Source of the DNA: Candidatus Sumerlaeia bacterium
GTDB lineage: Bacteria; Sumerlaeota; Sumerlaeia; SLMS01
Length of the DNA stretch: 40,169 bases
Reading direction: 5' to 3'
Assembly: GCA_038208905.1 (NCBI GenBank)
Contig: JBBQYG010000015.1
Location: 1-40,169, forward strand
Part shown: in pieces, positions 910 through 21,971 of the stretch
How positions within the stretch are numbered: the first letter of the stretch is position 1
How the letters are laid out: each line of letters starts with the position of its first letter
Notes under the pieces: generated by a model
Database searches by the model: none
Told to the model about the DNA's origin: nothing
What the model saw: the letters and a program-made list of their open reading frames with translations, nothing else
Program-made: the position numbers and the translations under genes

Positions 910-1443
910 CCCCAATCCTTCACCCCGCCGCCCGCCCGGGCTCCAACGCCACTTTGCGCCGTGGGGCCTGGGCCTGGATTTTGGGTGGGTATGTTTTCGC
1001 CTTCCGCTGCGCAAGCGGCCTTGGATTGCGGTGGGGCTGGGAAGGGGGCCTTTGTGGTGGGGTCGGAGAGGTGTTTGGGGGTTGCGGGCGGGCGGGGCGG
1101 ACAGCCTCGGTGGCCACCGTGCCCTGGGCTCCGGTGAGCATGCCGGCCAGCGCGGCGGTGGCGATCTGCGGCAGGCGGTAGCCCCGGCGGTGGGGCAGGC
1201 GCTTCTCCAGCAGGGCGCGCAGGCCCAGGCGCCCGAACACGCGCGCGGCCACCGCCAACCCCCCGAAACTCGTCACCGACTCGCCCGGCGCAAAGTCCAG
1301 CTTGATCGCCTTCGCCGAATGCTGCTGATTCTTGGTCGCCTTCTGCGCGCCTCCTCGGTTGTCTTGCGTCGTTGCAAACACAAGAAAACACAAGGGCGCG
1401 CAGATGAGCTTCTACTTTTTAGGGGATTTCTGAAGGATTAGGG
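910..1443 (-). mobile_element. Internally deleted IS / MITE-like element (IS1380-like, tentative)
   Basis: Terminal inverted repeats CCCCAATCCTTCA (910-922) and TGAAGGATTAGGG (1431-1443) match 12/13. Flanked by the 8-bp direct repeat AGCCCGGC (902-909, 1444-1451). Contains a transposase-like N-terminal fragment. Confidence 0.85.
1097..1393 (-). pseudogene. Truncated transposase N-terminus
   Basis: IKLDFAPGESVTSFGGLAVAARVFGRLGLRALLEKRLP...LAGMLTGA resembles the IS1380-type N-terminus (TS.GGL). Similarity ends abruptly and there is no DDE core. Boundaries approximate. Confidence 0.6.
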
Positions 1444-2662
1444 AGCCCGGCGCTGGCGGGAGGGGCACCGCGATCCCCCTCAGCGCCGCCAGCCGCTCGA
1501 TCGTCTCGCCGATGGCGCGGTTGGGGGTACTGGCCCCGGCGGTTAGGCCGATGGTGGCGGGGCCGGGGGGTAGCCAGTCGTGGGTGAGGGTGGTCTGCCG
1601 GCTGTGGGCCGGCTGGTGGCGAATCTCGCCGAGGGAAAGAATCTCCGCCGCGTCGCTGATGTGGAACGCGGGCATCCGGCCCGTGGCGATTTCCAGCAGG
1701 TGCCCCGTGTTGCTGGAGTTGTAGCCGCCGATGATCAGAATCATGTCGAGCTCGCCGGATTCCACCAGTTCCACGATGGCGTCCTGACGCTCCTGGGTGG
1801 CGCTGCAGATGGTGTCGAAGCTGCGAAAGTGCGCGTCGATGTTCTCCGCGCCCCACCGCGTCACCATCGCGCTCCGGACCATCGCCGCGATCTCAAGCGA
1901 CTCGCTGGCGAGCATCGTGGTCTGGTTGGCGACGCCCACGCGCCCCAGATCGCGCGCGGGATCGAAGCCCTTGCTGAAGGCGAGGGGGCCCAGCGCCAGT
2001 GCGGCCTGCGGCGGCAACTCGCCCGCGATCACACGGCAAATCAGCTCCGCCTGCGCCTTGTCCAGCACCACCACGGTGTGGCCGCCGAACTTCTGGGCCT
2101 GGCTGACGGTGGCGAGTGTTTCCGCGTGCAGCGCCTTGCCGTGAACCAGCGCCGTATATCCATCCTTGGCATACTTCTCCACCCGCTTCCACACGTGCAC
2201 CACCGAGCCACAGGTGGTATCGACCAACACGCAGCCCGTCGCGCGGAGTTGCTCCAGATACTCCGCCGGAACGCCGAAGGCGGGCATCATCACCACGTCG
2301 CCCGCGGCGATGTCGGCAAAGCCCGCCTCGCCCTTGAGCGCGCCGGAAAGGAACTCGATCCCCATCTCGCGAAGCCGCTGGTTCACGGTGGGGTTGTGGA
2401 TAATCTCGTAAGTGAGGAACAGGCGCCGGTCGGGGAACTTGGCCCGCGCCTCATAGGCCATGTCCACGGCCTTGTCCACGCCATAGCAGAAGCCGAACTC
2501 CTTCGCGAGGCGGAAGGAGAGCCCATCCAGCTCCAGCCGGTTGCCGTTGGCGCGCATCCAATCGACGATGTGGCTGTGGTAGTCCCGCGCGACCGCAGGG
2601 GCGATTTCGGCCTTCATGCCGAGGCTGGACCGGAAGTAATTTTGGGAAACTGAGGGTGCCAT
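1412..2662 (-). CDS. ispH: 4-hydroxy-3-methylbut-2-enyl diphosphate reductase (long cyanobacterial/plant-like type)
   Basis: FGFCYGV, EIIHNP, VDTTC, NQTTM, DTICSATQERQDA, IGGYNSSNT and GASTP motifs, with three Fe-S cysteines. The last 10 residues come from the IS end. Confidence 0.95.
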   Translation of the reverse strand: MAPSVSQNYFRSSLGMKAEIAPAVARDYHSHIVDWMRANGNRLELDGLSFRLAKEFGFCYGVDKAVDMAYEARAKFPDRRLFLTYEIIHNPTVNQRLREMGIEFLSGALKGEAGFADIAAGDVVMMPAFGVPAEYLEQLRATGCVLVDTTCGSVVHVWKRVEKYAKDGYTALVHGKALHAETLATVSQAQKFGGHTVVVLDKAQAELICRVIAGELPPQAALALGPLAFSKGFDPARDLGRVGVANQTTMLASESLEIAAMVRSAMVTRWGAENIDAHFRSFDTICSATQERQDAIVELVESGELDMILIIGGYNSSNTGHLLEIATGRMPAFHISDAAEILSLGEIRHQPAHSRQTTLTHDWLPPGPATIGLTAGASTPNRAIGETIERLAALRGIAVPLPPAPGSLILQKSPKK

Positions 2663-2840
2663 GCGCGCTCCGGGAGGCTGGAAACAGGGGGCTTTCGACG
2701 CCCTTGGGCAATTGCGGCCTTGCGGCGGCGTGCTGACAATCGCTTTTTGGGGTTGCGTCGAAGGTTCCCGCCCTTCATTCTGTCCCCGCAGGTCCGAGCA
2801 GGAAATCAGGATACCCCACCGGAAAAACAGGAGATTCCCC

Positions 2841-3536
2841 GTGCAAGCTGCAGCCATCCGAAAAGGCTTCACCCTCATCGAACTACTGATCGTCGTCGCG
2901 ATCATCGCCATCCTCGCGGCAATCGCCGTGCCGAACTTCTTGGAGGCGCAGACGCGCGCGAAGGTGAGCCGCTGCAAGAGCGACATGCGCACCCTTGCCC
3001 TCGCGATCGAGGCATACAACCTCGACAATAATATGCCCCCCAGTTCTGCAGGCAACGGCTCCGGCGGAGTTTTCCGCCCCTACGCCGTGCCCCCACGCAC
3101 CGTATTCAATCCGACATCGAATCTGACGATCGGATTTGACGTGACGACGCCGATTGCCTATTTGACCGGAATTTCGTCCTTGCGCGACCCCTTCAAGGAA
3201 GACCGCGCCGGCGTCTCGGACATTACGGGGCGCGTCTATTACGGATTCATCAACTACCAGTGGCTTGAGAAGTTGAACGGCAACACGGCATTGCCACTCG
3301 TCACAATCAGCAAGCCCTTCCATGGCCAGTGGGTTCTCTATGGCTGCGGTCCCGATAAGGCCACCTCCAACATCGCGGGAAGCAAGGTGGACTACTCCTC
3401 GATCGCTAATGTCCCTGGCGGCGGCGACGACCTCCCCCTTCGCGTAAGCTATGACCCCAGCAACGGCACCCTCTCCCACGGCGACATCATCCGCAGCCAG
3501 AAGCACTCGGAACTGACTCCGCAGTTCCCGATCTAA
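2841..3536 (+). CDS. Prepilin-type N-terminal cleavage/methylation protein (type IV pilin / pseudopilin-like)
   Basis: K-G|FTLIELLIVVAIIAILAAIAVPNF class III signal. GTG start with AGGAG RBS. C-terminal YDPSNGTLSHGDI. Confidence 0.9.
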   Translation: MQAAAIRKGFTLIELLIVVAIIAILAAIAVPNFLEAQTRAKVSRCKSDMRTLALAIEAYNLDNNMPPSSAGNGSGGVFRPYAVPPRTVFNPTSNLTIGFDVTTPIAYLTGISSLRDPFKEDRAGVSDITGRVYYGFINYQWLEKLNGNTALPLVTISKPFHGQWVLYGCGPDKATSNIAGSKVDYSSIANVPGGGDDLPLRVSYDPSNGTLSHGDIIRSQKHSELTPQFPI

Positions 3537-3602: not shown

Positions 3603-3638
3603 TTCATATTGCAATCTCCGCGCACCAAGCAGGGCGCC

Positions 3639-3863
3639 CTACATGAACGCGTTCTCGCGCTTATCCTGATACACCGCGCGCGCCTCCGCCTCGTTCTTGG
3701 CGTCAATCTCGGCGACGGGTTCGGGGTCGAGGAGCGGGTTGCTGCGCGGGACGACAATGCCCATTTTGATATGGATCTCGGGGATCAGGATGAAGGGCTT
3801 GGCGGCCCCTTCCTCGTCGGTGAGTGAAGCGGTTCGTTGTTCGAAGACAAGGTAGCGAGTCAT
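3639..3863 (-). CDS. Small hypothetical protein (74 aa)
   Basis: ATG preceded by AAGGAGG RBS. Protein-like composition MTRYLVFEQ...ENAFM. Confidence 0.7.
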   Translation of the reverse strand: MTRYLVFEQRTASLTDEEGAAKPFILIPEIHIKMGIVVPRSNPLLDPEPVAEIDAKNEAEARAVYQDKRENAFM

Positions 3864-3915
3864 TGGAGAGCCTCCTTCTGCCTTCGTATTATCGCGATAT
3901 GACGATGGATAGCAA

Positions 3916-4096
3916 GAGGGAAAGGCGAACGGCAGGGAACGACGGAAAAGGCGGGAACGGCGGGTTGGAAGGAGGGAACCGGGCGGGCAGAGCGATCTGC
4001 CCACAAAAAAAATCTCCTTTCACGCCTTTCCCATCGTTCCCGCTGTTTCCTCTTTTCCCGCCTTTCCCGTTTTTTCCGTCGTTCCCGTCGTTCCCC
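3916..4096. repeat. Inverted array of degenerate 9-bp repeats (CGGGAA[A/C]RR), copy 1
   Basis: About 5 purine-rich units (3916-3965), a spacer, then 9 complementary units such as CCTTTCCCG and TCGTTCCCG (4016-4096). Confidence 0.8.
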
Positions 4097-4100
4097 TCCC

Positions 4101-5132
4101 CTAGCCTACCTCAACAACCACCTTCATCACTTGCTCGTTCATGCTGCGCATGAGGCGGTGGGCTTCGGCGATTTCGGCGAGGGGGAAGCGGTGAGTGACG
4201 ATGCGTTCGATGCCGTCGAGGCGTCCGGAGCGGAGGAGGTCGGTGGCGCGGCCCAGGGCGTTGTGGGGGCGGCGGACGAATTGGATGGTGAGTTCCTTCT
4301 GGCGGGCGTCGTTGGCGCCGAAGAGCACGCGGTTGTCGGCGGGGATGCCCCCGAGCAGGACGCGCCCGCCGGCGCGGGCGAGGGAGACGGCCTGGCGGGA
4401 GGCCTCGCTGGCGTTGCTGACGTCGATGACGACATCGGCTCCGCCGAGGGGCCATCCGCGGATTGCTTCCTCGGCGTGGGCGGGCTCCATCGCGATCGTG
4501 GCGCCGTGTTCCAGAGCGGCTTCGCGGCGATAGGCGAGGGGGTCGATGGCGAGGATCTCCCCGGCGCCGCTGGCGCGGAGAACCTGAATGAGGAGCAATC
4601 CCAGGCTGCCGCAGCCGAGCACCACCGCGGAGCCCATGACGGGGAGCGTGGCGTGATCGACGATGTGGATGGCGAGGCTGAGGGGGACGAGCATGACCGC
4701 CTGCTCGTCGGGAATGGAGTCGGGAACGACGACGCACTGGGAGGCGGGCCATGCGAAGCGCTCCTGCAAGGCGCCGTGAACGGGCGGGCGCCCCAGCATG
4801 CGGGAGTTGGGGCACAGGTGGGCGGCGCCGCGGCGGCACCACTCGCAATGGAGGCAGGGCGACACGGGGTCGGCGACGACGCGGGCGCCCTCGAACCGGG
4901 CATCGACGCCGCGCCCGACGGAGGCGACGCGGGCGACGAACTCCGACCCGGGAATGTGGGGTTGGCGGAACCCGTTGGCGAGGGGGGCGCCCTTGCGAAA
5001 GCGCAAGGCGTCCACGCCCGTCAGGCCGACAAGGCGCGGGGCGAGCAACAGCTCGAACGGCTCGGCCTCGCGGCGGGCGGGGACGTCCTTGACTTCGATG
5101 CGCTCGGGATTGGTGAGTTGGACGACTTTCAT
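4101..5132 (-). CDS. Medium-chain dehydrogenase/reductase (sorbitol/threonine dehydrogenase-like) with degenerate catalytic Zn site
   Basis: Structural Zn motif CLHCEWC...HLC, Rossmann GCGSLG and IVTHRFPL are present. Catalytic GICGSD / GHE / EP appear as GLTGVD / GSE / VP. Confidence 0.85.
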   Translation of the reverse strand: MKVVQLTNPERIEVKDVPARREAEPFELLLAPRLVGLTGVDALRFRKGAPLANGFRQPHIPGSEFVARVASVGRGVDARFEGARVVADPVSPCLHCEWCRRGAAHLCPNSRMLGRPPVHGALQERFAWPASQCVVVPDSIPDEQAVMLVPLSLAIHIVDHATLPVMGSAVVLGCGSLGLLLIQVLRASGAGEILAIDPLAYRREAALEHGATIAMEPAHAEEAIRGWPLGGADVVIDVSNASEASRQAVSLARAGGRVLLGGIPADNRVLFGANDARQKELTIQFVRRPHNALGRATDLLRSGRLDGIERIVTHRFPLAEIAEAHRLMRSMNEQVMKVVVEVG

Positions 5133-5169
5133 GGGTAGAGGGGACGGGAGGCCTGGCCGGAGGGCAAGA

Positions 5170-7596
5170 TCACTTGCGCGGGGCGGGGTCGCCGCCGCTG
5201 GGCGGGATCATTTCGGGAATGGCGGCGGTGGAGGGAATGGGCGTGATGCCCTCGGCGCTGCGGTCCTCGCGCATGGGTACCTTCTCGCGGCTTTCGCGGC
5301 TGCGGCGTTCCGCGGCGGGGAGGGCGCGGCCCGCCGCGCCCACCTTCTTGGGATAGTCGATGCGCGTGTGGAAGCGCGACTTGAGCACGCGGACGAAGAC
5401 CTCGCGGATGACGTTGAGGTCGCGGAGCGTCAGGTTGCATTCGTCGAACTGGCCGTCGTTGAACTTCTCGGTAATGGTGTCGCGGACGACTTTCTGGATG
5501 TCCTCCTCGCGGACGGCGCGGCTGGAGAGCTTGGCGGTGGCGGTCGCCTCCACGGTATCGGCCAGCATCACGATGCCGGCCTCGATGGTCTGGGGCTTGG
5601 GGCCGGGATAGCGGTAGTCCTCCTCGCGGACGGGTTCCTTGATTTCGCCGCGGGCCTGGCCCTTCTGGGCCTTGTCATAGAAGTAGTAGATCAGGCTGGT
5701 GCCGTGGTGCTGCTCGATGAAGTCGATGATGCGCTGGGGCAGGCCGGCGGCGCGGGCCATTTCGGCGCCTTCCTTGACGTGGTTCTTGATGATGAGGGTG
5801 CTGATCTGCGGGCGCTTGTCGGCGTGCAGCATCTTGTCCTCGTTGGTGATCTGGTTCTCGGTGAAGTACTCGGGGCGCTTGGTCTTGCCGATGTCGTGGA
5901 AGTAGCATCCCGCGCGCACGAGGAGGTAGTTCACGCCGATCTCCGTGGCGGCGGCCTCGGCCAGCTTGGTCACGTTGAGGGTGTGCTGCCACGTGCCGGG
6001 GGCGAGTTCCTCCACCTGGCGGATCAGCGGATGGTGCAGGCCCGTGAGTTCCAGGAGCTGCATGTCGGTCACGATTCCAAACCGCTCGAAGATGGGCATG
6101 ATGGCCAGCACCAGGAAGCCCTGGATCCCCGCAAAGAATCCAAGCCCCGCAAGGCCGAGCGGAATGATCTCGGGATTTCGGATATAGCTGGTGATCAGGA
6201 TGATGGCTGCGCAGACGAGGCCGATGAGGATGGCGGCGACAAAGACCTCCCACCGTTTGCGGATCGTATAGATCGCCGCGACGCCCGTATATCCGCCAAA
6301 GAGGCCGACGATCACGAACTCGTAGTTGAGATTTACCTGCAATCCAAACAGCAGGCACCCCCACGTGACCAGCAGCAGCGCCATGCGCACATCCAGGAGC
6401 AGCACGCCCAGCATCCCGATGGCCCCGGCGGGGAACAGATAGCCGACCTTGGAGACATCGCCGCCCGCGAGCACGATGATGGCGGCCTCCAGCGCGAGGC
6501 CGAGCAGCACGGGAATGGAAATCAGGATCAGGTTGCGGGCGCTGAACTCAAGCTCCCGGCTGAACTTGCGCACATAGAACGCGATGATCAGGAAGACAAT
6601 CAGCGTGAATCCCGCGTGCCCGACCAGGCGCAGCGAGTGGCGCGCCTCCACCGCGCCGCGGTGCGTGGCGAGAAGCTGGACTTCCTCCGCGGTGAGGCCC
6701 GTCGGCCGACGGAGCGCCTCCGCCGGAAGGATGGCCGCCCCCCGAGCGTAGGGCGTCGAAAGGTCGCGCTCGGGATAGCTGCGCAGGGACTCCTCCGTCC
6801 CGATGGTGTCGAGCCGCAGGTTGGGCTGCACGATCGCGGTCAGGAGCTGGCGCGCCACGGTGCGCGCCATCGCCTCGCGGTCGCTCCCAACGAAGGCCTG
6901 TCCCAGCGGGCGCATCAGCGGCGCCCAAGCGGCCCAGTCGGACGGAAGGGGAATCGGCGAACGGACGATCTCCTCGCGGGTGATGTTGTTCCGCTCGGTG
7001 TCGTGGACCTCGGCGAGCCCGTATTCGATGTAGCCCTTGTAGCGCGTATAGTCGCGCGGCGCCACGATCACATTCTCGTCATAGGCGTTGAGCAGGATGG
7101 CGCCGATGGACTGACGGAATCCCGCGTCGCGGAGGATCGACACGAAATCCGCGATGTTGTCCGCCGCCAGGAAGGTCAGCCGGGAATCCACACGGCGAAT
7201 CGCGGCCAGTATCTCCTCCGGGGTTTGCGCGGAGGGGTCGATGGCGTCGGCGGTGGAGTGAAGCTCGTTGAGGGAGCGGATTACCTGATCGCGGCGCGTG
7301 GCATCGTGGATGAACAGCCGCTTGTGGCGCTCCTGGCGCTCGCGCTCCCACTCCTCCGTGTTCTGGCGCGTGGTGAACCGGAAATCGACCTGGGCATTCA
7401 CCTGCCCGGGGGGAACCTCCCCCAGTTTGCCAACCGCAGGCCGAAAGAAATAGAAGGGACTCGTGAGGAAAACCGTCAGCAGATAGACAGCCACCAACAC
7501 CAGCCAGCGCACAGCCCCCCGCCGACGCCCATCCTCGCCCTGATGGGTGCGGTGGATCTTGCGGATTTCCTGCGAGAGGGTCAGACTCCGCGCCAT
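5170..7596 (-). CDS. 7TM-HD (HDIG) family phosphohydrolase, PgpH-like c-di-AMP phosphodiesterase candidate
   Basis: N-terminal TM, large extracytoplasmic region and about 7 TMs, then APGTWQH, FHDIGK, ENQ, HHGT, YPGPKP and MLAD. Lies downstream of phoH as is typical. Confidence 0.88.
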   Translation of the reverse strand: MARSLTLSQEIRKIHRTHQGEDGRRRGAVRWLVLVAVYLLTVFLTSPFYFFRPAVGKLGEVPPGQVNAQVDFRFTTRQNTEEWERERQERHKRLFIHDATRRDQVIRSLNELHSTADAIDPSAQTPEEILAAIRRVDSRLTFLAADNIADFVSILRDAGFRQSIGAILLNAYDENVIVAPRDYTRYKGYIEYGLAEVHDTERNNITREEIVRSPIPLPSDWAAWAPLMRPLGQAFVGSDREAMARTVARQLLTAIVQPNLRLDTIGTEESLRSYPERDLSTPYARGAAILPAEALRRPTGLTAEEVQLLATHRGAVEARHSLRLVGHAGFTLIVFLIIAFYVRKFSRELEFSARNLILISIPVLLGLALEAAIIVLAGGDVSKVGYLFPAGAIGMLGVLLLDVRMALLLVTWGCLLFGLQVNLNYEFVIVGLFGGYTGVAAIYTIRKRWEVFVAAILIGLVCAAIILITSYIRNPEIIPLGLAGLGFFAGIQGFLVLAIMPIFERFGIVTDMQLLELTGLHHPLIRQVEELAPGTWQHTLNVTKLAEAAATEIGVNYLLVRAGCYFHDIGKTKRPEYFTENQITNEDKMLHADKRPQISTLIIKNHVKEGAEMARAAGLPQRIIDFIEQHHGTSLIYYFYDKAQKGQARGEIKEPVREEDYRYPGPKPQTIEAGIVMLADTVEATATAKLSSRAVREEDIQKVVRDTITEKFNDGQFDECNLTLRDLNVIREVFVRVLKSRFHTRIDYPKKVGAAGRALPAAERRSRESREKVPMREDRSAEGITPIPSTAAIPEMIPPSGGDPAPRK

Positions 7597-7746
7597 TCAG
7601 CGGCGTCCTTTTCGGAAAGAATCCATGCCGACCAGCGGTTGACGGGACGAATCTTCGGCAGAGGAGCCACCAAGCCAACCGAAGATTGGAGCAGGTTGGG
7701 CTTTAAGGGACCGCAGAGACCAAAGCGACGAGCCGAGCCGACCGCA

Positions 7747-7791
7747 TTTCATCCCTCATCCCTCCGACCTCGTCCCTCCCTTTCATCCCTT
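7747..7791. repeat. Short TCATCCC heptamer tandem repeat
   Basis: TTTCATCCCTCATCCCTCCGACCTCGTCCCTCCCTTTCATCCCT at the phoH stop. The same motif occurs inverted at 16693-16717. Confidence 0.45.
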
Positions 7792-8802
7792 CCTGTCGTC
7801 TCCGCCGAATTTCTCGTAGGCTTGCACGATCTTCATCACCAGCTCGTGGCGGACGACGTCCTGTTCGTTGAAGAAGACGAAACCGATGTCGTCGATCCCC
7901 TTGAGGACCTGCTGCACCTGGACGAGGCCGGAGACGCTGCGGCTGGGGAGGTCGATCTGGGTGACGTCGCCGGTGATGACGGCCTTGGACTCGAAGCCAA
8001 GGCGGGTGAGGAACATCTTCATTTGCTCGGGGGTGGTGTTCTGCCCCTCGTCCAGAATCACGAAGGCGTTGTTGAGCGTGCGCCCGCGCATGAAGGCGAG
8101 CGGGGCGATCTCGATCACGCCGGTGTCGAGGGCGTGGCGGATCTTCTCGGACTCCATCATCTCATAGAGGGCATCGTAGAGCGGGCGGACGAAGGGGTCC
8201 ATCTTCTCCTTCAGGTCGCCGGGGAGGAAGCCAAGCTTCTCCCCCGCCTCGACCGCCGGGCGGCACAGGACGATGCGGCTGACGCGGCCCGCGATCAGGT
8301 GGCTGACGGCCATGGCGACGGCGAGGTAGGTCTTGCCGGTTCCCGCGGGGCCGATGCCAAAGACGATGTCCTTGCGGCGGATCTCGTCGATGTAGGCCTT
8401 CTGTCCGGCGGTGATGGGAGAAAGGCGGCGGCGCTTGAGGGGGAGCGGGATGCCGTCGAGGAAGATTTCGGAGAGGGGGCGGTCGTAGTTGCGGGGGTCC
8501 TCGTCAACGCGCGGGGAGTCGGCGGGGCCCTTGGCCTTGAGCGATGCCTGGCGGACGACTTGGCGGAACTCCTGCTTGTTGAAGCCGCCACCGCGGCGCT
8601 GCATGTCCAGAATCTCCAGAATCATCCCGTGGGCGCGGGCGACGTCCTCGGTGGCGCCGATGATCTTGAGCGTGTCGCCGCGCAGTACCATGCGGGCGTT
8701 GGTGATCTTCTCGAGTTCGGTGAGTTTCGCTTCGTTCTGGCGGGAGAAGTCCAGGGCTTCCTGCTTCTCGAGTTGGACAACCTGCTCGGCGGTGTCGCTC
8801 AA
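7783..8802 (-). CDS. phoH: PhoH family ATPase (YbeZ-like)
   Basis: GPAGTGKTYLA, RPAVEAGEKLGFLPGD, APLAFMRGRTL, GDVTQIDLP, DVVRH. TTG start is inferred. Confidence 0.93.
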   Translation of the reverse strand: MSDTAEQVVQLEKQEALDFSRQNEAKLTELEKITNARMVLRGDTLKIIGATEDVARAHGMILEILDMQRRGGGFNKQEFRQVVRQASLKAKGPADSPRVDEDPRNYDRPLSEIFLDGIPLPLKRRRLSPITAGQKAYIDEIRRKDIVFGIGPAGTGKTYLAVAMAVSHLIAGRVSRIVLCRPAVEAGEKLGFLPGDLKEKMDPFVRPLYDALYEMMESEKIRHALDTGVIEIAPLAFMRGRTLNNAFVILDEGQNTTPEQMKMFLTRLGFESKAVITGDVTQIDLPSRSVSGLVQVQQVLKGIDDIGFVFFNEQDVVRHELVMKIVQAYEKFGGDDRKG

Positions 8803-9035
8803 ATTCCGCGGTTCTCTTGGATAGTGGGATCGAACGGCATTGGGGCACTGATTGGAACGCTGTTCCCCGCCGCCGGGGCTGTCAACCCGAAGGGGCGCGA
8901 ATGGTGAACGCCGCACAATTGCCTTGGATTCCGGTCTTGACCGTTTGCGAACGGGCGGGCACCTTGGGGCAGCTGTGCGGCGTTCGGCGGGGGATCGAAT
9001 TCTTCCGGCTAGGAAACAAACCGGGGAGAGATGGA

Positions 9036-11720
9036 ATGCGTCGATTCGTACTGATGGCAGGATGCCTGTTGGCCACCGCGACCGCCAGCATGGCGCATAG
9101 GCCGGCCGCGCCCATCGATGCGGCGGATCCGGCGACGTGGCCGTGCGGATTCTCCCCCGTGGAGAACGACACGCCGGGGCGGATGAAGGCGCTCTTCGCG
9201 GCGGAGGGATCCGATGTGTATCTGACCGAGGCCCAGATGGCGAAGCTCAAGCGCCCGGCGCCAACCAACCCCGACCGCTCCACGCATGTCCAGGGGGATA
9301 TAAAGATATACAGCTCCCCCGCCTCGGCGACTCGCGACGGAGGAGGCGCGCTGGCGGGCCGCGTCGTCTATGTGATGGCCGGACACGGGTGGACGCCGAA
9401 CGCCTCGACCTGGGCGCTCCAGCGCAGCCCCGCCCTCGGCATGGTGGAGGATATGGGGACCTACGACCAGGCGACGATCTTCGCCGACCTGGCGCTGGGC
9501 GCGGGCGCCATCGTGGTGCCGCTCCGCGCGTTCCACCACCAGAGCGCGGAAGTCGTGGTCGACAACGACGACGCGGCGGCGACGTTTGCGGGAACGTGGG
9601 ACGAAAGCGGCAGCACGGCATTCTACGGCACCCCCGGCGACGTGGCCTATCGCTTCGCCACGGCGGTTGACGGCGCCGCCACCGCGACGGCGCGATTTTC
9701 GGCGACGATCACAAAGACGGATTTCTATCCCGTCTATGCATGGGCCCGGTGGGGCGTCGATCGCATCAACCAGGAGTACATCGTGGGGCACTCCGGCGGG
9801 ACCACCAGCCGTCGCATCAACCACCGCATGGTCGGCGCGGGATGGGTCTACCTGGGATTCTATCACTTCGAGGCAGGCGGCCAGGCGTATGTGGAAATCA
9901 ACAACGCCCGCCAGCCCGGCGACACCGGCACGGTGGTCATCGCCGACGCGATTCGCTTTGGCAACGGGATGGGTTCCATTGCGGGGGCATCGGGCATTTC
10001 GGGGAAACCGCGCGAGGAGGAAAACGGCACCTATTGGGCAACGGAGAGCGTTGGCGTGGCGCCGGACGCCCCCTTGGCGGGAACAAACTGGGTGAGCGCG
10101 CCGCGCGAGCTTTCGGAATACATGAACTTCACCGACGCCGTGCCCGATCCGATCATCGACTCAACGCGCAAGCGGGTCTATTTGAGCTTTCACTCCAACG
10201 CGGGCGGAGGGCGCGGGGCCGACGGGCTGTTCAACTCCTACGGGGCGACACCCACTGTTCCCAATGAGAACACGACGCCAGACAGCTATCTCTTCGCGCA
10301 GTTGACTGGCCAGTATGTGAACCGCGACATGACCGCGGAAACAACGGCATCCGGGAACCCCTATGAGTTTGCCTGGGGTCGCAGCGGCTTTGGCAGCAAT
10401 GTTTTCGGCTCGGGAAATCGTCCCTTCGATGCCTACGGCGAGATCAACAACTCGTTCAATGGCGAGATGGCGATGACGATTATCGAGGTGGCCTTCCACG
10501 ACAACTCCAGCGACACCGCACTGATGCGCGATTCGCGGGTGCGCTATGCGATTGCGCGCGCCAACCTGCACGCCCTGATCGACTACTTCAACCAAGTGGA
10601 TAGCGGACCGATGACATTCCTCCCCGAGGCGCCGAGCAATGTGGCGGTGGTGTCGGATGTCGCGGCGAATCTGAGCCTGAGCTGGACCCCCCCAGTCGAT
10701 GGCGGCCCGTGGGGGCGCGGCGGCGACGCCCCGGCTGGCTACGTTGTCTATACATCCGCCAACGGCCGCGGATTCGTGGAGGCCGCGACGGTGGCTAGCG
10801 GCGCCACGGCGAGCCTGGACGTGACGGCGCTGGTGCCGCCCGGCGAGACACGCTTCTTCCGCGTGTCGGCCACCAACGCGGGGGGCGAATCGTTTCCCTC
10901 CGCCGTTGTCGGCGCCTCGCGCCCGGCCGCCGGCCGGAATCCGATTCTGGTCGTCAGCGGCTTCACCCGCGACGACCGCACGCTGAACCGCCTCCAGACG
11001 GAGAATTTCGGGTCCTTCGAGCGCGTGGTCCCGCTCTACCACAACTCCTTCGACTACGTGGCCGACGCCGGGCGCTCGGTCGCGGCCCACGGCAGCCGGT
11101 TCGACTCCTGCGAGGCGAGCCGCGTGGAATCGGGCGCCGTCAGCCTGCTCAACTACGCCACGGTGATCTGGCTGCTGGGAGAGGAAAGCACCGCGAACGA
11201 AACCTTCAGCGCGGCGGAGCAGGCGCTCGTCACCGCGTTCCTCGCGGGTGGCGGCAACCTCTTCGCCAGCGGCGCGGAGATCGGCTGGGACCTCGGGCGT
11301 TCCTCGGGCCCGACCGCCGCCGACCGCGCATTCCTGGCTAATCAGCTTCGCGTCGGGTTTCCCTCCAACGCCTTCGACGATGGCAACTCCTACAACGCCA
11401 CCGGGTCCGGCCTCTTCGCCAGCGTCGGCGCGTTCTCCATCGCCAGCGGCTCCAACGCCCAAGGCACCTACAATGTGGATACCCCCGACGTCTTACTGCC
11501 CGAGGGCGCCGGCGCCTCCACCGTGGCCAACTATGTGGGCGGCACGGGCAACAGCGCGGCGGTGGCCTATGACGGCAGCGCCGGCGGCGGGCGCCGCGTC
11601 GTGATGGGCATTCCCTTCGAGGCCATTTCCCCCTCCGCGAAGCGCGACGCGCTGATGGCGGCGGTGCTCGATTTCTTCGGCGCGCCGGCAGACGTTGGCG
11701 ACTGGATGGTTGTTTATTAG
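9036..11720 (+). CDS. Secreted N-acetylmuramoyl-L-alanine amidase-like protein with golvesin/CBM-like insert and FN3 domain
   Basis: Signal peptide MRRFVLMAGCLLATATASMA. Amidase_3-like motifs VYVMAGHG, SFHSNA, IIEVAFHDN. VVVDNDD...IADAIRFG module. FN3 LSWTPP...FRVSATNAGGES. Confidence 0.75.
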   Translation: MRRFVLMAGCLLATATASMAHRPAAPIDAADPATWPCGFSPVENDTPGRMKALFAAEGSDVYLTEAQMAKLKRPAPTNPDRSTHVQGDIKIYSSPASATRDGGGALAGRVVYVMAGHGWTPNASTWALQRSPALGMVEDMGTYDQATIFADLALGAGAIVVPLRAFHHQSAEVVVDNDDAAATFAGTWDESGSTAFYGTPGDVAYRFATAVDGAATATARFSATITKTDFYPVYAWARWGVDRINQEYIVGHSGGTTSRRINHRMVGAGWVYLGFYHFEAGGQAYVEINNARQPGDTGTVVIADAIRFGNGMGSIAGASGISGKPREEENGTYWATESVGVAPDAPLAGTNWVSAPRELSEYMNFTDAVPDPIIDSTRKRVYLSFHSNAGGGRGADGLFNSYGATPTVPNENTTPDSYLFAQLTGQYVNRDMTAETTASGNPYEFAWGRSGFGSNVFGSGNRPFDAYGEINNSFNGEMAMTIIEVAFHDNSSDTALMRDSRVRYAIARANLHALIDYFNQVDSGPMTFLPEAPSNVAVVSDVAANLSLSWTPPVDGGPWGRGGDAPAGYVVYTSANGRGFVEAATVASGATASLDVTALVPPGETRFFRVSATNAGGESFPSAVVGASRPAAGRNPILVVSGFTRDDRTLNRLQTENFGSFERVVPLYHNSFDYVADAGRSVAAHGSRFDSCEASRVESGAVSLLNYATVIWLLGEESTANETFSAAEQALVTAFLAGGGNLFASGAEIGWDLGRSSGPTAADRAFLANQLRVGFPSNAFDDGNSYNATGSGLFASVGAFSIASGSNAQGTYNVDTPDVLLPEGAGASTVANYVGGTGNSAAVAYDGSAGGGRRVVMGIPFEAISPSAKRDALMAAVLDFFGAPADVGDWMVVY

Positions 11721-12625: not shown

Positions 12626-13327
12626 CTACCTGCGCTCCATGGGGATGATGGCGGCGACCAGCAAATAGCAATACCCTGTTTTCTCGTACGGCTCTCCAAT
12701 CGAGACGGTGGCGAGCACCGGACTCTTCAGTTCTGGCGTCGCCCCATTGCTTATCGCATGGAAGCCCGTTGGCAACGATTGCAGCCGATGCTCGTAGTCG
12801 TCATCGGTTAGCGGGAGATCGTAGTTGATTCGATCGCGGTGAAAGTTTACGCGGGCCTGCCTGCGGGTGGCGCCTGGCTGACTCGGCTCGCGCAACTGCC
12901 ACTCGAAATCCTCCAGCAGGATCAAGGCGAGGGAGGAGGACCGGGGCTCCCCTGGCGAGACGTGGTTCAGCTTTGTTCCGAAAAGAAGGGGATCACGGGC
13001 AAGCGACTTCCGAAGAAGCGCCCTTCCCGATTCATCTAGGCCCCGACGAATCAGCCGCCACGGGGTGCGTGCAAGAACCCAGTCCTCGGGTTGATACGGC
13101 TTGGGGGAGGGAGAGGTGACTCCGAACTCGATCACATCCAGCAGGCGTGGCGCCCCATGCGGGCCGAGGTCCATGCTGGCGGGGTCAATTTCGCCGTGGG
13201 GAGTGGATGGGTCGATGGGGCGAATCCAGCCGCCCCCATCGAGGCGAATGCCCGCGACACATCGCAGCCCATGCTTTCGGGAGTTTGCGAGACAGAGGAC
13301 TTGGACGCGCTGTTCTGTTGGATGCAC
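12626..13327 (-). CDS. Dual OB-fold domain-like protein
   Basis: VLCLANSRKHGLRCVAG, WIRP, QPEDW, YDLPLTD and SIGEPY...CYLLVAAI match a family I recall next to DUF488 genes. Confidence 0.7.
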   Translation of the reverse strand: MHPTEQRVQVLCLANSRKHGLRCVAGIRLDGGGWIRPIDPSTPHGEIDPASMDLGPHGAPRLLDVIEFGVTSPSPKPYQPEDWVLARTPWRLIRRGLDESGRALLRKSLARDPLLFGTKLNHVSPGEPRSSSLALILLEDFEWQLREPSQPGATRRQARVNFHRDRINYDLPLTDDDYEHRLQSLPTGFHAISNGATPELKSPVLATVSIGEPYEKTGYCYLLVAAIIPMERR

Positions 13328-13343
13328 GGTGCCACTCCAGGGA

Positions 13344-13784
13344 TCAGAGGTGGATAGTCCGCAAGTCCGGCCAGTATCCCGCCAAGTACTGCAGGACCAG
13401 GCGCCGGTGGCACTTTTCCGCGGTTGGCTCGGAGCAAAGGAGCACCGTGGGATCTCGGAACAGATTCTGGTCCAACGCGGCCTCGATCCTGCGCTGACCC
13501 ATGAGCGCGAGGAAGTCCCTTTCGTAGTCCTCCCACGGCACGACTTTCTTCATCTTATAGGCGCTCAGCATCTCCTGAGTGGGGGCGAGCAGCGGCTCGT
13601 GTACATAGCGAATACCGCCAATCTCCCCAAGGAAGTACTCCAGATCGGATGCCTTGGTGAACCCGGCGAGCTGGGAGACGTTGTTCAGGCGCACATCGAC
13701 GAGGGTGCCTATATTTGCTCCACGTAGGATTCCGAAGAATTCCCGAGCGCTTTTTTTCGTAAACCCGATTGTATAGACTTCCAT
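13344..13784 (-). CDS. DUF488 family protein
   Basis: YTIGFTKKSA, LVDVRLNN.SQLAGF, LAPT, LLCSEPTAEKCHRRLV. Confidence 0.85.
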   Translation of the reverse strand: MEVYTIGFTKKSAREFFGILRGANIGTLVDVRLNNVSQLAGFTKASDLEYFLGEIGGIRYVHEPLLAPTQEMLSAYKMKKVVPWEDYERDFLALMGQRRIEAALDQNLFRDPTVLLCSEPTAEKCHRRLVLQYLAGYWPDLRTIHL

Positions 13785-14326
13785 TGCTCGCGCTCCTGGG
13801 GCAGATTGACCTCGGCGAAGATGTCGAGCTGGGGCCGTCGCGCTTCGTCGAGGCGGGCCAATTCTTCCTCAAGTTCCAATCGTCCGTCGCCGCGAATATG
13901 GCGCACGTCCACGCCCTGTTCGTGAAGCACGCGGGAGAGCAGCAGGCGGCGGTGGCACGCGGAGGGGTTTTCCTCGCTGCACATGGTGGCGATGGAGAAT
14001 TGCTTCATGCCTCGATAGAGTCGGGTGACACCGTCCAGGAAGAATTCGCTCTCGGCCATACGCCAATAGAGGGCGCGCCCGTCCTCGTCGTAGAACTCCG
14101 CGGCGGGGGGTTGGCCGCCAAGTTCGCGGCCCATGAAAACGTACTTGAAACCGTTCTCCGCTAGGATCGTCGATATGTTCTCTCGCGAGAAATAAGGGCA
14201 ATAGCTGCTGACGGGGCGGGAGCGCACATCGGCCACGACATCGATCCGATGGGCGCGCAGCAGCCCAAGAAAGTGATCGAGCGCGTGATTTGAGTGGCCG
14301 ACGGTGTGGATTGTGAAGTTCGGCAT
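13709..14326 (-). CDS. DUF488 family protein
   Basis: TVGHSNH, ADVRSRP.S, ELGG, MCSEENPSACHRRLL, HIRGDG. Its 3' end overlaps the next DUF488 gene. Confidence 0.85.
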   Translation of the reverse strand: MPNFTIHTVGHSNHALDHFLGLLRAHRIDVVADVRSRPVSSYCPYFSRENISTILAENGFKYVFMGRELGGQPPAAEFYDEDGRALYWRMAESEFFLDGVTRLYRGMKQFSIATMCSEENPSACHRRLLLSRVLHEQGVDVRHIRGDGRLELEEELARLDEARRPQLDIFAEVNLPQEREQWKSIQSGLRKKALGNSSESYVEQI

Positions 14327-20345: not shown

Positions 20346-21311
20346 TCACCTCTGCTTTTCACGGTACTTGCTCCACGCCAGCTCGCTTGCGTTCACATCG
20401 ACGTAGCGAAGCCGAAGGGCACTGAGCCAGTCTGACTGCTGGCGGGTGGCAGCGCTGGGATGCCAAGAGGAGAGAATCTTGCCGAGAGGCCATTCGAGCA
20501 GGGTCGCCTGTCCTGCCTCCGTAAGTTTCCCTCTGTAAGCCTTGATGGCGGCTGGGCAACCATCATCCAGATCATGGTACACGACAGCGCAGAAGGCCTC
20601 CTTGTACTTCCTCGGAGACTGCCTCAGGACTGCAAAAGTCAGGAGGTGGTCCCGCCAAAGCTGGTTGGTCTCCGGGTTTGGGAAATCAGTTTCAGAGCCG
20701 GGTAACCACCAACCGTTATCTCGTGCGAACCAATCTGTATAACGTTTTGAGGGATACTCTTTTTGCGAGAATGGTTCCGTCAGCTTGGTTTCGACAGCGA
20801 TGAAGCCAAGATCGCCATTCTCCAGTTCATACTCTACGAAGGCATCGAATGCCGTGCGATCTCCCAGCAGTCCTTCCCCGTCGTACTCCACTTGGACATC
20901 TCGAACCTTCAATCCTCCGGGTACGCCGGGGAGGGTCGAAATCAGCCGCGTCGCCAGATCGAAGTCCGCATGAAGTGGACCGAATAAGTTGAAGCACATG
21001 GGCTGGCTGCTGAGCAGATTCCGCCGCAGCCGGTCAGGCTCAATCGCCCCTTCGCCTTCCGAAAGTCGCTGCGCAGCGAATCCATAAATCTCGTCCGTCA
21101 GGAAGTTGAATCCACGTTGCCCGTCCGAGTCCGTGAGCATGCTGCCGTAGAGTTCCCCGCCCGCCTGAGGATTGGGGCCAGGAGACAGACCAAGTGCGTG
21201 GTGTCGATACCATGACTGATGAAAACGGAGCCGACCCTTGAACTCGCCGTCGCTGGGAGCCACATGCTTGCAGTCACTTTCCAACCCATGAGGTGCTGGT
21301 GTACCCGCCAT
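20346..21311 (-). CDS. Putative PD-(D/E)XK restriction-endonuclease-fold protein (PGN_0703-like)
   Basis: NLLSSQPMCFNLFGPL, EY, DRTAFDA, IAVETKLTEPF and NQLWRDHLL. GAGG RBS. Visibly lower GC than the flanking genes. Confidence 0.75.
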   Translation of the reverse strand: MAGTPAPHGLESDCKHVAPSDGEFKGRLRFHQSWYRHHALGLSPGPNPQAGGELYGSMLTDSDGQRGFNFLTDEIYGFAAQRLSEGEGAIEPDRLRRNLLSSQPMCFNLFGPLHADFDLATRLISTLPGVPGGLKVRDVQVEYDGEGLLGDRTAFDAFVEYELENGDLGFIAVETKLTEPFSQKEYPSKRYTDWFARDNGWWLPGSETDFPNPETNQLWRDHLLTFAVLRQSPRKYKEAFCAVVYHDLDDGCPAAIKAYRGKLTEAGQATLLEWPLGKILSSWHPSAATRQQSDWLSALRLRYVDVNASELAWSKYREKQR

Positions 21312-21396
21312 ATTTTTCCTCGCTCTTGATGGAAATTCCGAAGCCCCAGCTCCGGACGTGAGACTACCGCCTGGATCATTTCCAAGGGCAAGTAGG

Positions 21397-21462
21397 AACC
21401 TCTGACCTGACTCTCCGCACCTCTTCGTTCTGAAAGCAACCTCGTTTTCTTGCCCCGGAGCC
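21397..21462 (-). repeat. Right arm of ~66-bp imperfect inverted repeat
   Basis: The minus strand reads GGCTCCGGGGCAAGAAAACGAGGTTGCTTTCAGAACGAAGAGGTGCGGAGAGTCAGGTCAGAGGTT. Confidence 0.75.
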
Positions 21463-21570
21463 ACATTTTCCCTCCTCGATGCCGCGCTTGAGCCTTCGGG
21501 GCGGTCGATTACGAGCAGTGGTGGTGGCCCTGCGCGGGTTCGCGGCGCGTTGCCGCCCTCTGAACTGGCG

Positions 21571-21722
21571 TCATGCGTGGCTCTCCCGATGTCTGACTGC
21601 CTTGAGAAGGTTGTGGGCGAGGATCGCCAGGCTGACCTGTTCGCGGAAGCGGACGATGCCTGTATATACGGCGCGGCCCAGCCGGCGCCATCGCTTGAGC
21701 GCGCAGAAGACGCCCCGCGAGG
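21571..21722 (-). pseudogene. DDE transposase C-terminal remnant (IS5/IS1182-like)
   Basis: GVFCALKRWRRLGRAVYTGIVRFREQVSLAILAHNLLK matches the F..LK...L.R..Y.G......L..LAHNL pattern. Confidence 0.6.
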
Positions 21723-21731
21723 GCCTGCTCC

Positions 21732-21971
21732 ACTCACGAAAATGCCTCCATCTGGATTCGGGGAATGGATCCCCAGCCTGAAACTCGAATCGCCCGCCAG
21801 CTTGATGCTGGGGGCGGCGGAACAAAACTTGATCCCGAATCCCTTGCCGGAACTCGGGAGCTCTTCGTTCTATACAACCTGATTAACGACCAAGGCCTGT
21901 GGGAAGTTCACCGCTGCAAAACCGGAATCACTCTCCCGAATCAATCATCCGACTACTGGATTGTGGACTAA
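21732..21971 (+). pseudogene. C-terminal fragment of an unknown, possibly secreted, protein
   Basis: Open frame THENASIWIRG...LWEVHRCKTGITLPNQSSDYWIVD* with no good start. The tail resembles the end of the 9036-11720 protein. Confidence 0.35.

Follow-up and report, generated by a model that had tools for sequence, protein, structure and literature searches.

The gene examined here, which we name ADHx, occupies positions 4101..5132 on the minus strand of the window, a term used below for the whole 40,169-nt stretch of contig JBBQYG010000015.1 that was analysed. It encodes a protein of 343 amino acids, followed by a TAG stop codon at 4101-4103, and the protein is a member of the superfamily of medium-chain dehydrogenases/reductases (MDRs). 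ADHx lacks all three ligands of the catalytic zinc, while the structural-zinc motif and the NAD-binding motifs are retained. The same kind of state is rare but already documented in the superfamily, and ADHx is a new, independent case of the known MDR kind with structural zinc only. Judged from sequence comparison, there is about an even chance that ADHx acts as an NAD(H)-dependent oxidoreductase without catalytic zinc, with a substrate that is probably polar or anionic.

The first-pass annotation had described a full-length open reading frame (ORF) for a Zn-dehydrogenase-like protein at these positions. The full-length ORF stands, and its strand has to be corrected to minus; the plus-strand frame at 4101-5132 is an antisense open frame only, in a region of 68% G+C. 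In Pfam, ADHx matches ADH_N (64.6 bits, E-value 1.1e-17, cut-off 23.5 bits) and ADH_zinc_N (63.7 bits, 2.2e-17, cut-off 31.8 bits). It belongs to the MDR superfamily, with a GroES-like catalytic domain and a Rossmann cofactor domain. All 19 of its NCBIfam matches score far under the curated cut-offs, the best being TIGR00692 tdh with 137 against 458 bits. The top models describe L-threonine 3-dehydrogenase, Zn-dependent oxidoreductase and L-idonate 5-dehydrogenase, and ADHx fails every NCBIfam equivalog cut-off (tdh, idonate, IolM, GatD and others). It is also far under the NCBIfam cut-offs of quinone_pig3 (30.9 vs 296.8 bits) and crotonyl-CoA reductase (28.8 vs 378.6 bits). Two sources automatically name its orthologues 'L-iditol 2-dehydrogenase', and ADHx is a warning against automatic names of this sort.

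Among solved structures, the closest to ADHx by sequence are the ketose reductase 1e3j (2e-34, 122.8 bits), 5vm2 from E. coli and RspB (4ilk); threonine dehydrogenases and human sorbitol dehydrogenase are also among the best matches. The AlphaFold2 model, built with a 150-sequence alignment as input, has a predicted local distance difference test score (pLDDT) of 96.0 and a predicted template-modelling score (pTM) of 0.93. A Foldseek search of the PDB with this model placed at the top 5vm2, 1e3j, 6ie0 (butanediol dehydrogenase), 4cpd (TADH), 3m6i (arabinitol dehydrogenase), 1pl6 (human sorbitol dehydrogenase) and 2dq4 (threonine dehydrogenase), with template-modelling (TM) scores of 0.86-0.91. 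ADHx is thus predicted to fold as canonical polyol/threonine dehydrogenases do, the structural lobe included.

Ligand positions were assigned from HMMER alignments of ADHx to 1e3j, 5vm2 and 4ilk, and the codons were read one by one; all codons given below lie on the minus strand. At the position of the catalytic-zinc Cys, opposite GICGSD, ADHx has GLTGVD with Thr38 (codon ACG, 5019..5021). Opposite GHE it has PGSE, in which the His is replaced by Ser63 (TCG, 4944-4946) and Glu64 is kept (both codons, 4941..4946). The third, acidic residue of the zinc site, which lies in LEPL or in the VEP and IEP of the other two chains, is replaced by Val149 (GTC, 4686..4688) in MLVPL. The Ser/Thr of the proton relay, two residues past the catalytic Cys, is replaced as well, by Val40. 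By translation, the structural-zinc lobe has its four Cys (Cys93, Cys96, Cys99 and Cys107; 4812..4856), and the dinucleotide-binding elements GCGSLG (173-178), Asp197 and Arg202 are present at 4527..4616. In MDRs, residues at the places of Asp197, Arg202 and the GxGxxG motif bind the NAD ribose and phosphate, and the acidic residue that ends the second Rossmann strand, Asp197, presumably indicates a preference for NAD. The first-pass annotation had reported the replacement of the Cys, His and Glu by Thr38, Ser63 and the Val of LVPL, along with an intact four-Cys site and GxGxxG; the structure alignments and the codon check bear out the substitutions and identify the Val as residue 149, and the two intact motifs are found at the positions given above.

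The homologues of ADHx form a compact group. A search of 5.8 billion proteins returned 21 clusters (P0004-P0024) with 54-66% identity and 399-502 bits, followed by a next match of 215 bits and at most about 41% identity. In an exhaustive search of 1.84 billion representatives, the group contributes a single full-length protein (P0018, 426 bits) plus two fragments, and the next match has 213 bits. The clade was defined as the query plus the 21 clusters, a set made by similarity and not by ligand loss. All matches of both protein searches were aligned with the query, giving 269 sequences with 22 clade rows and 247 outgroup rows.

The three zinc ligands are absent from all 22 clade rows. Position 38 is Thr in 13 clade rows, Ser in eight and Gly in one; the 247 outgroup rows have Cys (232), a gap (14) or Glu (1). 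Position 63 is Ser in 12, Thr in four, Ala in three, and Gln, Gly and Ile in one each, compared with His (236), a gap (10) or Ser (1) in the outgroup. At position 149, the clade has Val (7), Ile (5), Leu (3), Thr (2), Ala (2), Met (1), Asn (1) and Pro (1), and the outgroup has Glu, Gln or Asp (245), Val (1) or a gap (1). Val149 occurs in one outgroup row only, P0123, and that row is itself a clade fragment of 246 aa. The lone row with Glu38 and Ser63 is P0230, whose match to the query begins only at residue 65 and whose N-terminus is unaligned. The four structural Cys occur in all 22 clade rows and in 243-244 of the 247 outgroup rows, and Glu64 occurs in all clade rows and in 236 of 237 ungapped outgroup rows. 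Gly173, Gly175, Gly178 and Arg202 are invariant in the clade, and position 197 is Asp in 20 rows and Glu in two. The second-sphere residue Asp41 is present in 21 of the 22 members, and a Ser/Thr is found at proton-relay position 40 in 17.

Orthologous frames without internal stops were found in 10 of the 11 genomes of the family to which the window belongs, in an uncultured phylum, eight of them near full length and two cut by contig ends. Among the 10 family genomes other than that of the window, nine have an orthologue, with 56-65% identity, and the genome that lacks one (G044) is 87% complete. No orthologue of at least 40% identity was found in 64 other searched genomes of the phylum. Two orthologues bear the NCBI name 'Candidatus Sumerlaeota bacterium'. 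A tree of 88 rows was made from 21 clade members and 67 canonical relatives of 320-380 aa, with the partial P0021 and sequences of other lengths left out. In this tree (quick IQ-TREE search, LG+G4, midpoint root only), the clade is monophyletic, with a Shimodaira-Hasegawa-like approximate likelihood ratio test (SH-aLRT) value of 100, and the stem that leads to it, surrounded by lineages with Cys/His/Glu still in place, measures 0.85 substitutions per site. A monophyletic clade on a long stem among ligand-keeping lineages points to a single loss of the ligands, followed by conservative evolution.

The C-termini differ within the clade. Many orthologues in the set P0005-P0024 extend past the MDR fold by a tail of 15-40 residues, with a conserved motif resembling Met-Pro-x-Tyr-x-Pro-x-Glu-Glu-Ser. 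ADHx itself ends at the MDR fold, and the tails of P0004, P0007 and P0020 are short. Past the ADHx stop, no tail motif that readthrough or a frameshift could add was seen in the two frames read by eye, which hold a purine-rich repeat only. This repeat has a period of 9 nt and about 8.9 copies, and lies at 4016-4095, directly downstream of the stop; its plus strand is rich in pyrimidines and the strand of the gene in purines. Contigs of three metagenome runs appear to skip approximately 3964-4054, with a shorter side that matches 21 letters only and is too weak to interpret.

Ratios of nonsynonymous to synonymous substitution rates (dN/dS) were calculated by the Nei-Gojobori method for 10 genomic orthologues. 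The dS was computable in 37 of 45 pairs and beyond correction in the other eight. Over the 37 pairs dN/dS ranges from 0.05 to 0.44, and the two same-genus pairs have values of 0.048 (89% amino acid identity) and 0.13 (81%). Because dS is at least 0.9 everywhere, these ratios are rough, yet dN stays well under dS throughout. ADHx is covered at 90-100% likeness by contigs of four DNA metagenome runs, which come from four studies and one of which is possibly the sample of origin; one contig of 2808 nt spans 3619-6273 without gaps. Among 19 listed runs there was no RNA holder of the sequence, which has no bearing on whether ADHx is expressed. Eight of the nine metagenome variants in ADHx are synonymous, including a change in the Thr38 codon (ACG>ACC) seen in other metagenomes, and the ninth is A187T. 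In the neighbouring 7TM-HD gene, which is described below, 18 of 19 variants are synonymous. The dN/dS values and the variants within ADHx show that it is under purifying selection. The first-pass annotation had looked to the orthologues for substitutions conserved at low dN/dS, and had taken the presence of Cys/His/Glu in close orthologues as a sign of recent decay; the ligand loss is common to all 22 clade members, none of which keeps the ligands, and dN is low as described.

Variability was ranked over the 343 positions, rank 1 being the most variable. From the outgroup to the clade, positions 38, 63 and 149 move from ranks 334, 335 and 319 to ranks 151, 80 and 22, and the clade has six residue types at position 63 and eight at position 149. 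A change in the other direction is found in the loop Asp266-Asn267-Arg268 after the GIP strand (4329..4337, minus). Its residues are present in 22, 21 and 22 of the 22 clade rows and in 20%, 5% and 21% of the outgroup rows, where the positions have ranks 34, 139 and 10; in the clade they are invariant or nearly so. By the topology of horse-liver alcohol dehydrogenase (ADH), we take the segment that follows the G-(I/V)-P strand to form a loop where the cleft opens, and residues 50-60 to line the substrate pocket, which would probably put Asp266-Asn267-Arg268 at the mouth of the active-site cleft. In total, 36 positions combine a conservation of at least 90% within the clade with the same residue in less than 25% of outgroup rows. 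They include Arg20-Arg21-Glu22, Gly54-Phe55-Arg56, His59, Trp128, Ser239-Asn240, Ser242-Glu243, Arg246, Asp266-Asn267-Arg268 and Pro289. In the alignment, constraint has visibly shifted from the metal ligands to another loop, probably one of the cleft.

ADHx descends from zinc-dependent enzymes resembling polyol/threonine dehydrogenases. The whole catalytic-zinc site (Cys38, His63 and Glu149) was lost in an ancestor common to this one family, whose uncultured phylum is probably Sumerlaeota; the lobe with the Cys4 site for structural zinc was kept, as was the Rossmann site for NAD(H). If ADHx is an oxidoreductase, its mechanism may be outlined as follows. NAD(H) is most likely still bound, and Asp197 predicts NAD over NADP. 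Hydride transfer would probably proceed without a Lewis-acid metal, on a substrate that does not need polarisation by zinc, namely a quinone-type acceptor or an activated C=C or C=N. A second possibility is a carbonyl that is polarised by hydrogen-bond donors or arginines of the remodelled cleft, for which Thr/Ser38, Ser/Thr63, Arg56 and Asp266-Asn267-Arg268 are candidates. Such a zinc-less mechanism would be of the kind proposed for the two characterised enzymes PyAeADHII and DPAS.

PyAeADHII is an enzyme of the archaeon Pyrobaculum aerophilum (PDB 4JBG/4JBH/4JBI). According to its published account (PMC3673990), it has Asn39, Ser61 and Ile147 at the ligand positions and no relay residue, and X-ray data together with cobalt substitution place one metal per subunit, at Cys91/94/97/105. 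The binding of NADPH by PyAeADHII resembles that of horse ADH, alpha-tetralone is the sole compound that it reduces, and an arginine is proposed to be catalytic (PMC3673990). ADHx resembles this enzyme in several respects: the ligands have given way to a small polar residue, Ser and an aliphatic residue (Thr38/Ser63/Val149), the relay residue is missing, and the Cys4 site (93/96/99/107) and the dinucleotide site are kept. The two proteins are distant relatives only, 4jbg matching ADHx with 47.3 bits (E 1.8e-11) against 122.8 bits for the canonical 1e3j, which makes the two zinc losses independent and the resemblance one of kind and not of family membership. Unlike the archaeal enzyme, whose structure was solved with NADPH, ADHx has an Asp197 that predicts NAD. 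Arg88, the candidate catalytic arginine of PyAeADHII, stands three residues before the first structural Cys and corresponds to Val90 in ADHx.

The plant MDRs of the dihydroprecondylocarpine acetate synthase (DPAS) type are a second case. According to the report on them (PMC12224309), their catalytic zinc was lost by substitutions in the coordination sphere, they reduce iminium ions and enals, and activity was unchanged when the ligands were put back. The DPAS features that invite comparison are descent from canonical zinc MDRs, a clade of their own, and the NAD(P)H-dependent activity with which they still reduce iminium ions as well as alpha,beta-unsaturated aldehydes. Unlike ADHx, DPAS-type enzymes belong to plant secondary metabolism and to the cinnamyl alcohol dehydrogenase (CAD) subfamily, have only two ligand positions substituted and keep the Ser/Thr; the comparison is one by description.

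In family terms, ADHx is most like the zinc-dependent polyol and threonine dehydrogenases (1e3j, 1pl6, 2dq4 and 5vm2), with E-values of 2e-34 to 2e-29, TM scores of 0.90-0.91 and the same length. In common with them, ADHx has GxGxxG, the Asp for NAD, a counterpart of Arg288 and, for those enzymes that possess one, the structural-zinc lobe. These enzymes carry Cys/His/Glu, whereas ADHx has none of the three. They need the catalytic zinc, which one report states to be necessary for activity (PMC9895041). ADHx also differs from the zinc-free quinone-oxidoreductase (QOR) and enoyl-reductase MDRs in keeping the Cys4 lobe. Those MDRs transfer hydride from NAD(P)H without a catalytic metal and have no structural-zinc lobe. 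For one QOR-like enzyme, the DPAS report says that the lobe is lacking (PMC12224309). In the open-access literature searched, no bacterial clade resembling polyol dehydrogenases and without catalytic zinc was described, and a Sumerlaeota genome paper does not mention such genes (PMC8092238).

Several observations weigh against an oxidoreductase. The activity of PyAeADHII is weak and artificial (PMC3673990), and the precedent is no proof of a physiological enzyme. ADHx has Val40 where 17 of the 22 clade members keep the relay Ser/Thr. No conserved gene neighbour points to a pathway in the nine orthologous loci described below. Positions 63 and 149 are free to vary, as expected of a site without chemistry, and a pseudoenzyme fits this equally.

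A non-catalytic pseudoenzyme is a possible alternative, which we hold to be less likely than an oxidoreductase on the present comparisons. ADHx would then not itself catalyse any turnover; with its MDR fold, NAD(H) pocket and structural zinc preserved, it may serve as a sensor of redox state (NADH/NAD+), a scaffold or a regulatory subunit. Loss of catalytic residues from a protein that is nevertheless conserved under selection is one mark of pseudoenzymes and is seen in ADHx, which lacks the relay Ser/Thr in addition to the three zinc ligands. The ex-ligand positions with ranks 80 and 22 of 343 are as variable as in a disused catalytic centre, the residues of the cofactor site are invariant, and the whole protein is under strong purifying selection. 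Many of the 21 aligned orthologues also end in a short tail with a conserved motif, possibly a docking peptide. Against this, Gly54-Phe55-Arg56, Asp266-Asn267-Arg268 and Arg288 are clade-specific and invariant and fall in segments that line the cleft in relatives, suggesting that a defined small ligand may still be bound. Also, no conserved partner gene is found near the nine loci, and both characterised zinc-less MDRs with structural zinc are enzymes. A more specific form, which we offer only tentatively and consider somewhat less probable, is a family-wide, selected NAD(H)-binding pseudo-dehydrogenase of Sumerlaeota-like bacteria. It would be the shell of a polyol dehydrogenase with cofactor pocket and structural zinc still in place, would have acquired a cleft loop of invariant Asp-Asn-Arg and, in many members, a docking tail at the C-terminus, and would act as a redox sensor or regulatory subunit and not as an enzyme.

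On the sequence evidence, it is improbable that ADHx is still a metal-dependent alcohol or polyol dehydrogenase with a catalytic metal site rebuilt from His59, Glu64, Thr/Ser38 or another segment. Glu64 and His59 (codon 4956..4958, minus) are each present in all 22 clade rows, and Asp41 is kept in 21, as a rebuilt site might have it; Glu64 is conserved in MDR relatives anyway, in the 236 of 237 rows given above. His59 is not convincing as a replacement ligand, because it also occurs in 19 outgroup rows, two of which (P0029 and P0069) were read in the alignment and keep the full Cys/His/Glu set. No clade-specific Cys has appeared; gains of His or of acidic residues are limited to E10, E22, H59, D142, D237, E243 and D266, and none of these stands next to position 38, 63 or 149 in the sequence. 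Moreover, various members have the non-ligands Ala, Gly, Ile, Val, Leu and Pro at positions 63 and 149.

Upstream of ADHx, at 5170..7596 (minus), lies a gene for a seven-transmembrane (7TM) receptor with an intracellular HD/HDIG hydrolase domain (Pfam 7TM-7TMR_HD, HD and 7TMR-HDED; HDIG), here called 7TM-HD. A phoH-like ATPase gene (Pfam PhoH, 6.3e-95) is located further upstream at 7783..8916 (minus). The first-pass annotation had ADHx co-directional after phoH and 7TM-HD, and all three genes are indeed on the minus strand, and the ATG of ADHx follows the 7TM-HD stop after a gap of 37 nt. It is very unlikely that ADHx is functionally tied to these two genes, for example as a regulatory subunit of a nucleotide-signalling or RNA-processing module. 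Such a tie is suggested by the common direction, by the short gap, in which no terminator-like site was found, and by a contig from another metagenome that bridges 7TM-HD and ADHx. The comparison with other genomes speaks against it. Nine orthologous loci were compared, with flanks of up to 8 kb per side (two loci are one-sided, with the gene at a contig end). When 12 ORFs of the window were searched against them by tblastn, ADHx alone was found, and none of its 11 neighbours, phoH and 7TM-HD included. Likewise, in the 7TM-HD loci of 10 relatives, taken with 1.5-kb flanks, ADHx, ybeY and the small frame orf121 described below are all absent; phoH adjoins 7TM-HD in three of these 10. The adjacency of 7TM-HD and ADHx is found in one of the 11 family genomes, that of the window. 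With phoH or 7TM-HD in none of the nine orthologous loci and ADHx in none of the 10 7TM-HD loci, the link implied by the first-pass annotation is not sustained, and an adjacency confined to this genome says nothing about function. In other bacteria, ybeY often follows phoH and the 7TM-HD gene. The ybeY of this genome lies on another contig (G000 contig C91:3266-3637).

The neighbours of the orthologues are unrelated to one another and vary by locus, including a histidine kinase, an HtrA-like protease, glycosyltransferases, an amine oxidase, a HAD hydrolase, a GFO/IDH/MocA oxidoreductase, a MoxR ATPase, sigma-54 and others. All-against-all clustering of the ORFs of the nine loci found nothing in common beyond same-genus pairs, except an HtrA-like protease in three loci.

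The probability that ADHx is a decaying, recently pseudogenised gene or an artefact of sequencing or assembly is negligible: it has lost residues held essential in the parent family and lacks the tail that many orthologues carry, but frames in 10 of 11 genomes are free of internal stops, the ligand-less state is common to 22 of 22 members across 54-66% identity, dN is far below dS, eight of nine population variants are synonymous and the gene was recovered from four metagenome runs, all in agreement with the first-pass annotation, which had held the gene not to be decaying.

Other features of the window were also recorded. Downstream of ADHx, orf121 (121 aa; 3639-4004, minus) is preceded by GGAG; it has no Pfam or NCBIfam family and no match in the nine ADHx loci or the 10 7TM-HD loci of relatives. 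A pilin-like ORF at 2661-3536 (plus) is convergent with ADHx; its prepilin N-methylation motif falls at residues 67-89 of the open frame, which makes a later true start probable. A LytB/IspH ORF is found at 1412-3055 (minus), with a domain that begins only at residue 183 of the longest frame. An ORF of about 970-1000 aa at 8724-11717 (plus), divergent from phoH, has the Golvesin C-terminal domain as its sole Pfam match. On the minus strand, at 12629-13868 and 20349-21869, there are two adjacent ORFs with Dual-OB (DuOB) and DUF488/DUF488-N3a domains and, about 6 kb off, a PD-(D/E)XK nuclease (PDDEXK_13 / REase-ARP). Links to conflict or defence systems are frequent for the Dual-OB, DUF488 and PDDEXK_13/REase-ARP domain families. 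Finally, an open frame of 1369 codons at 4780-8904 (plus) is antisense to 7TM-HD and phoH and is a typical artefact of high G+C, a warning against taking long ORFs for genes here.

In ADHx and its clade, nature provides a clean example of how the scaffold of an old zinc enzyme persists after deletion of its catalytic metal site. It has no common origin with the zinc-less examples from archaea and plants, and the loss arose in the polyol/threonine dehydrogenase branch, where the catalytic zinc is taken as indispensable. Should the reading as a pseudo-dehydrogenase be true, ADHx would be, to our knowledge, the first bacterial pseudoenzyme described on the zinc-ADH scaffold. With about 22 sequences and a confident model, the ADHx clade is a small and well-defined target for enzymologists, in which to look either for MDR chemistry that is new and free of zinc or for a bacterial pseudoenzyme that senses NAD(H).

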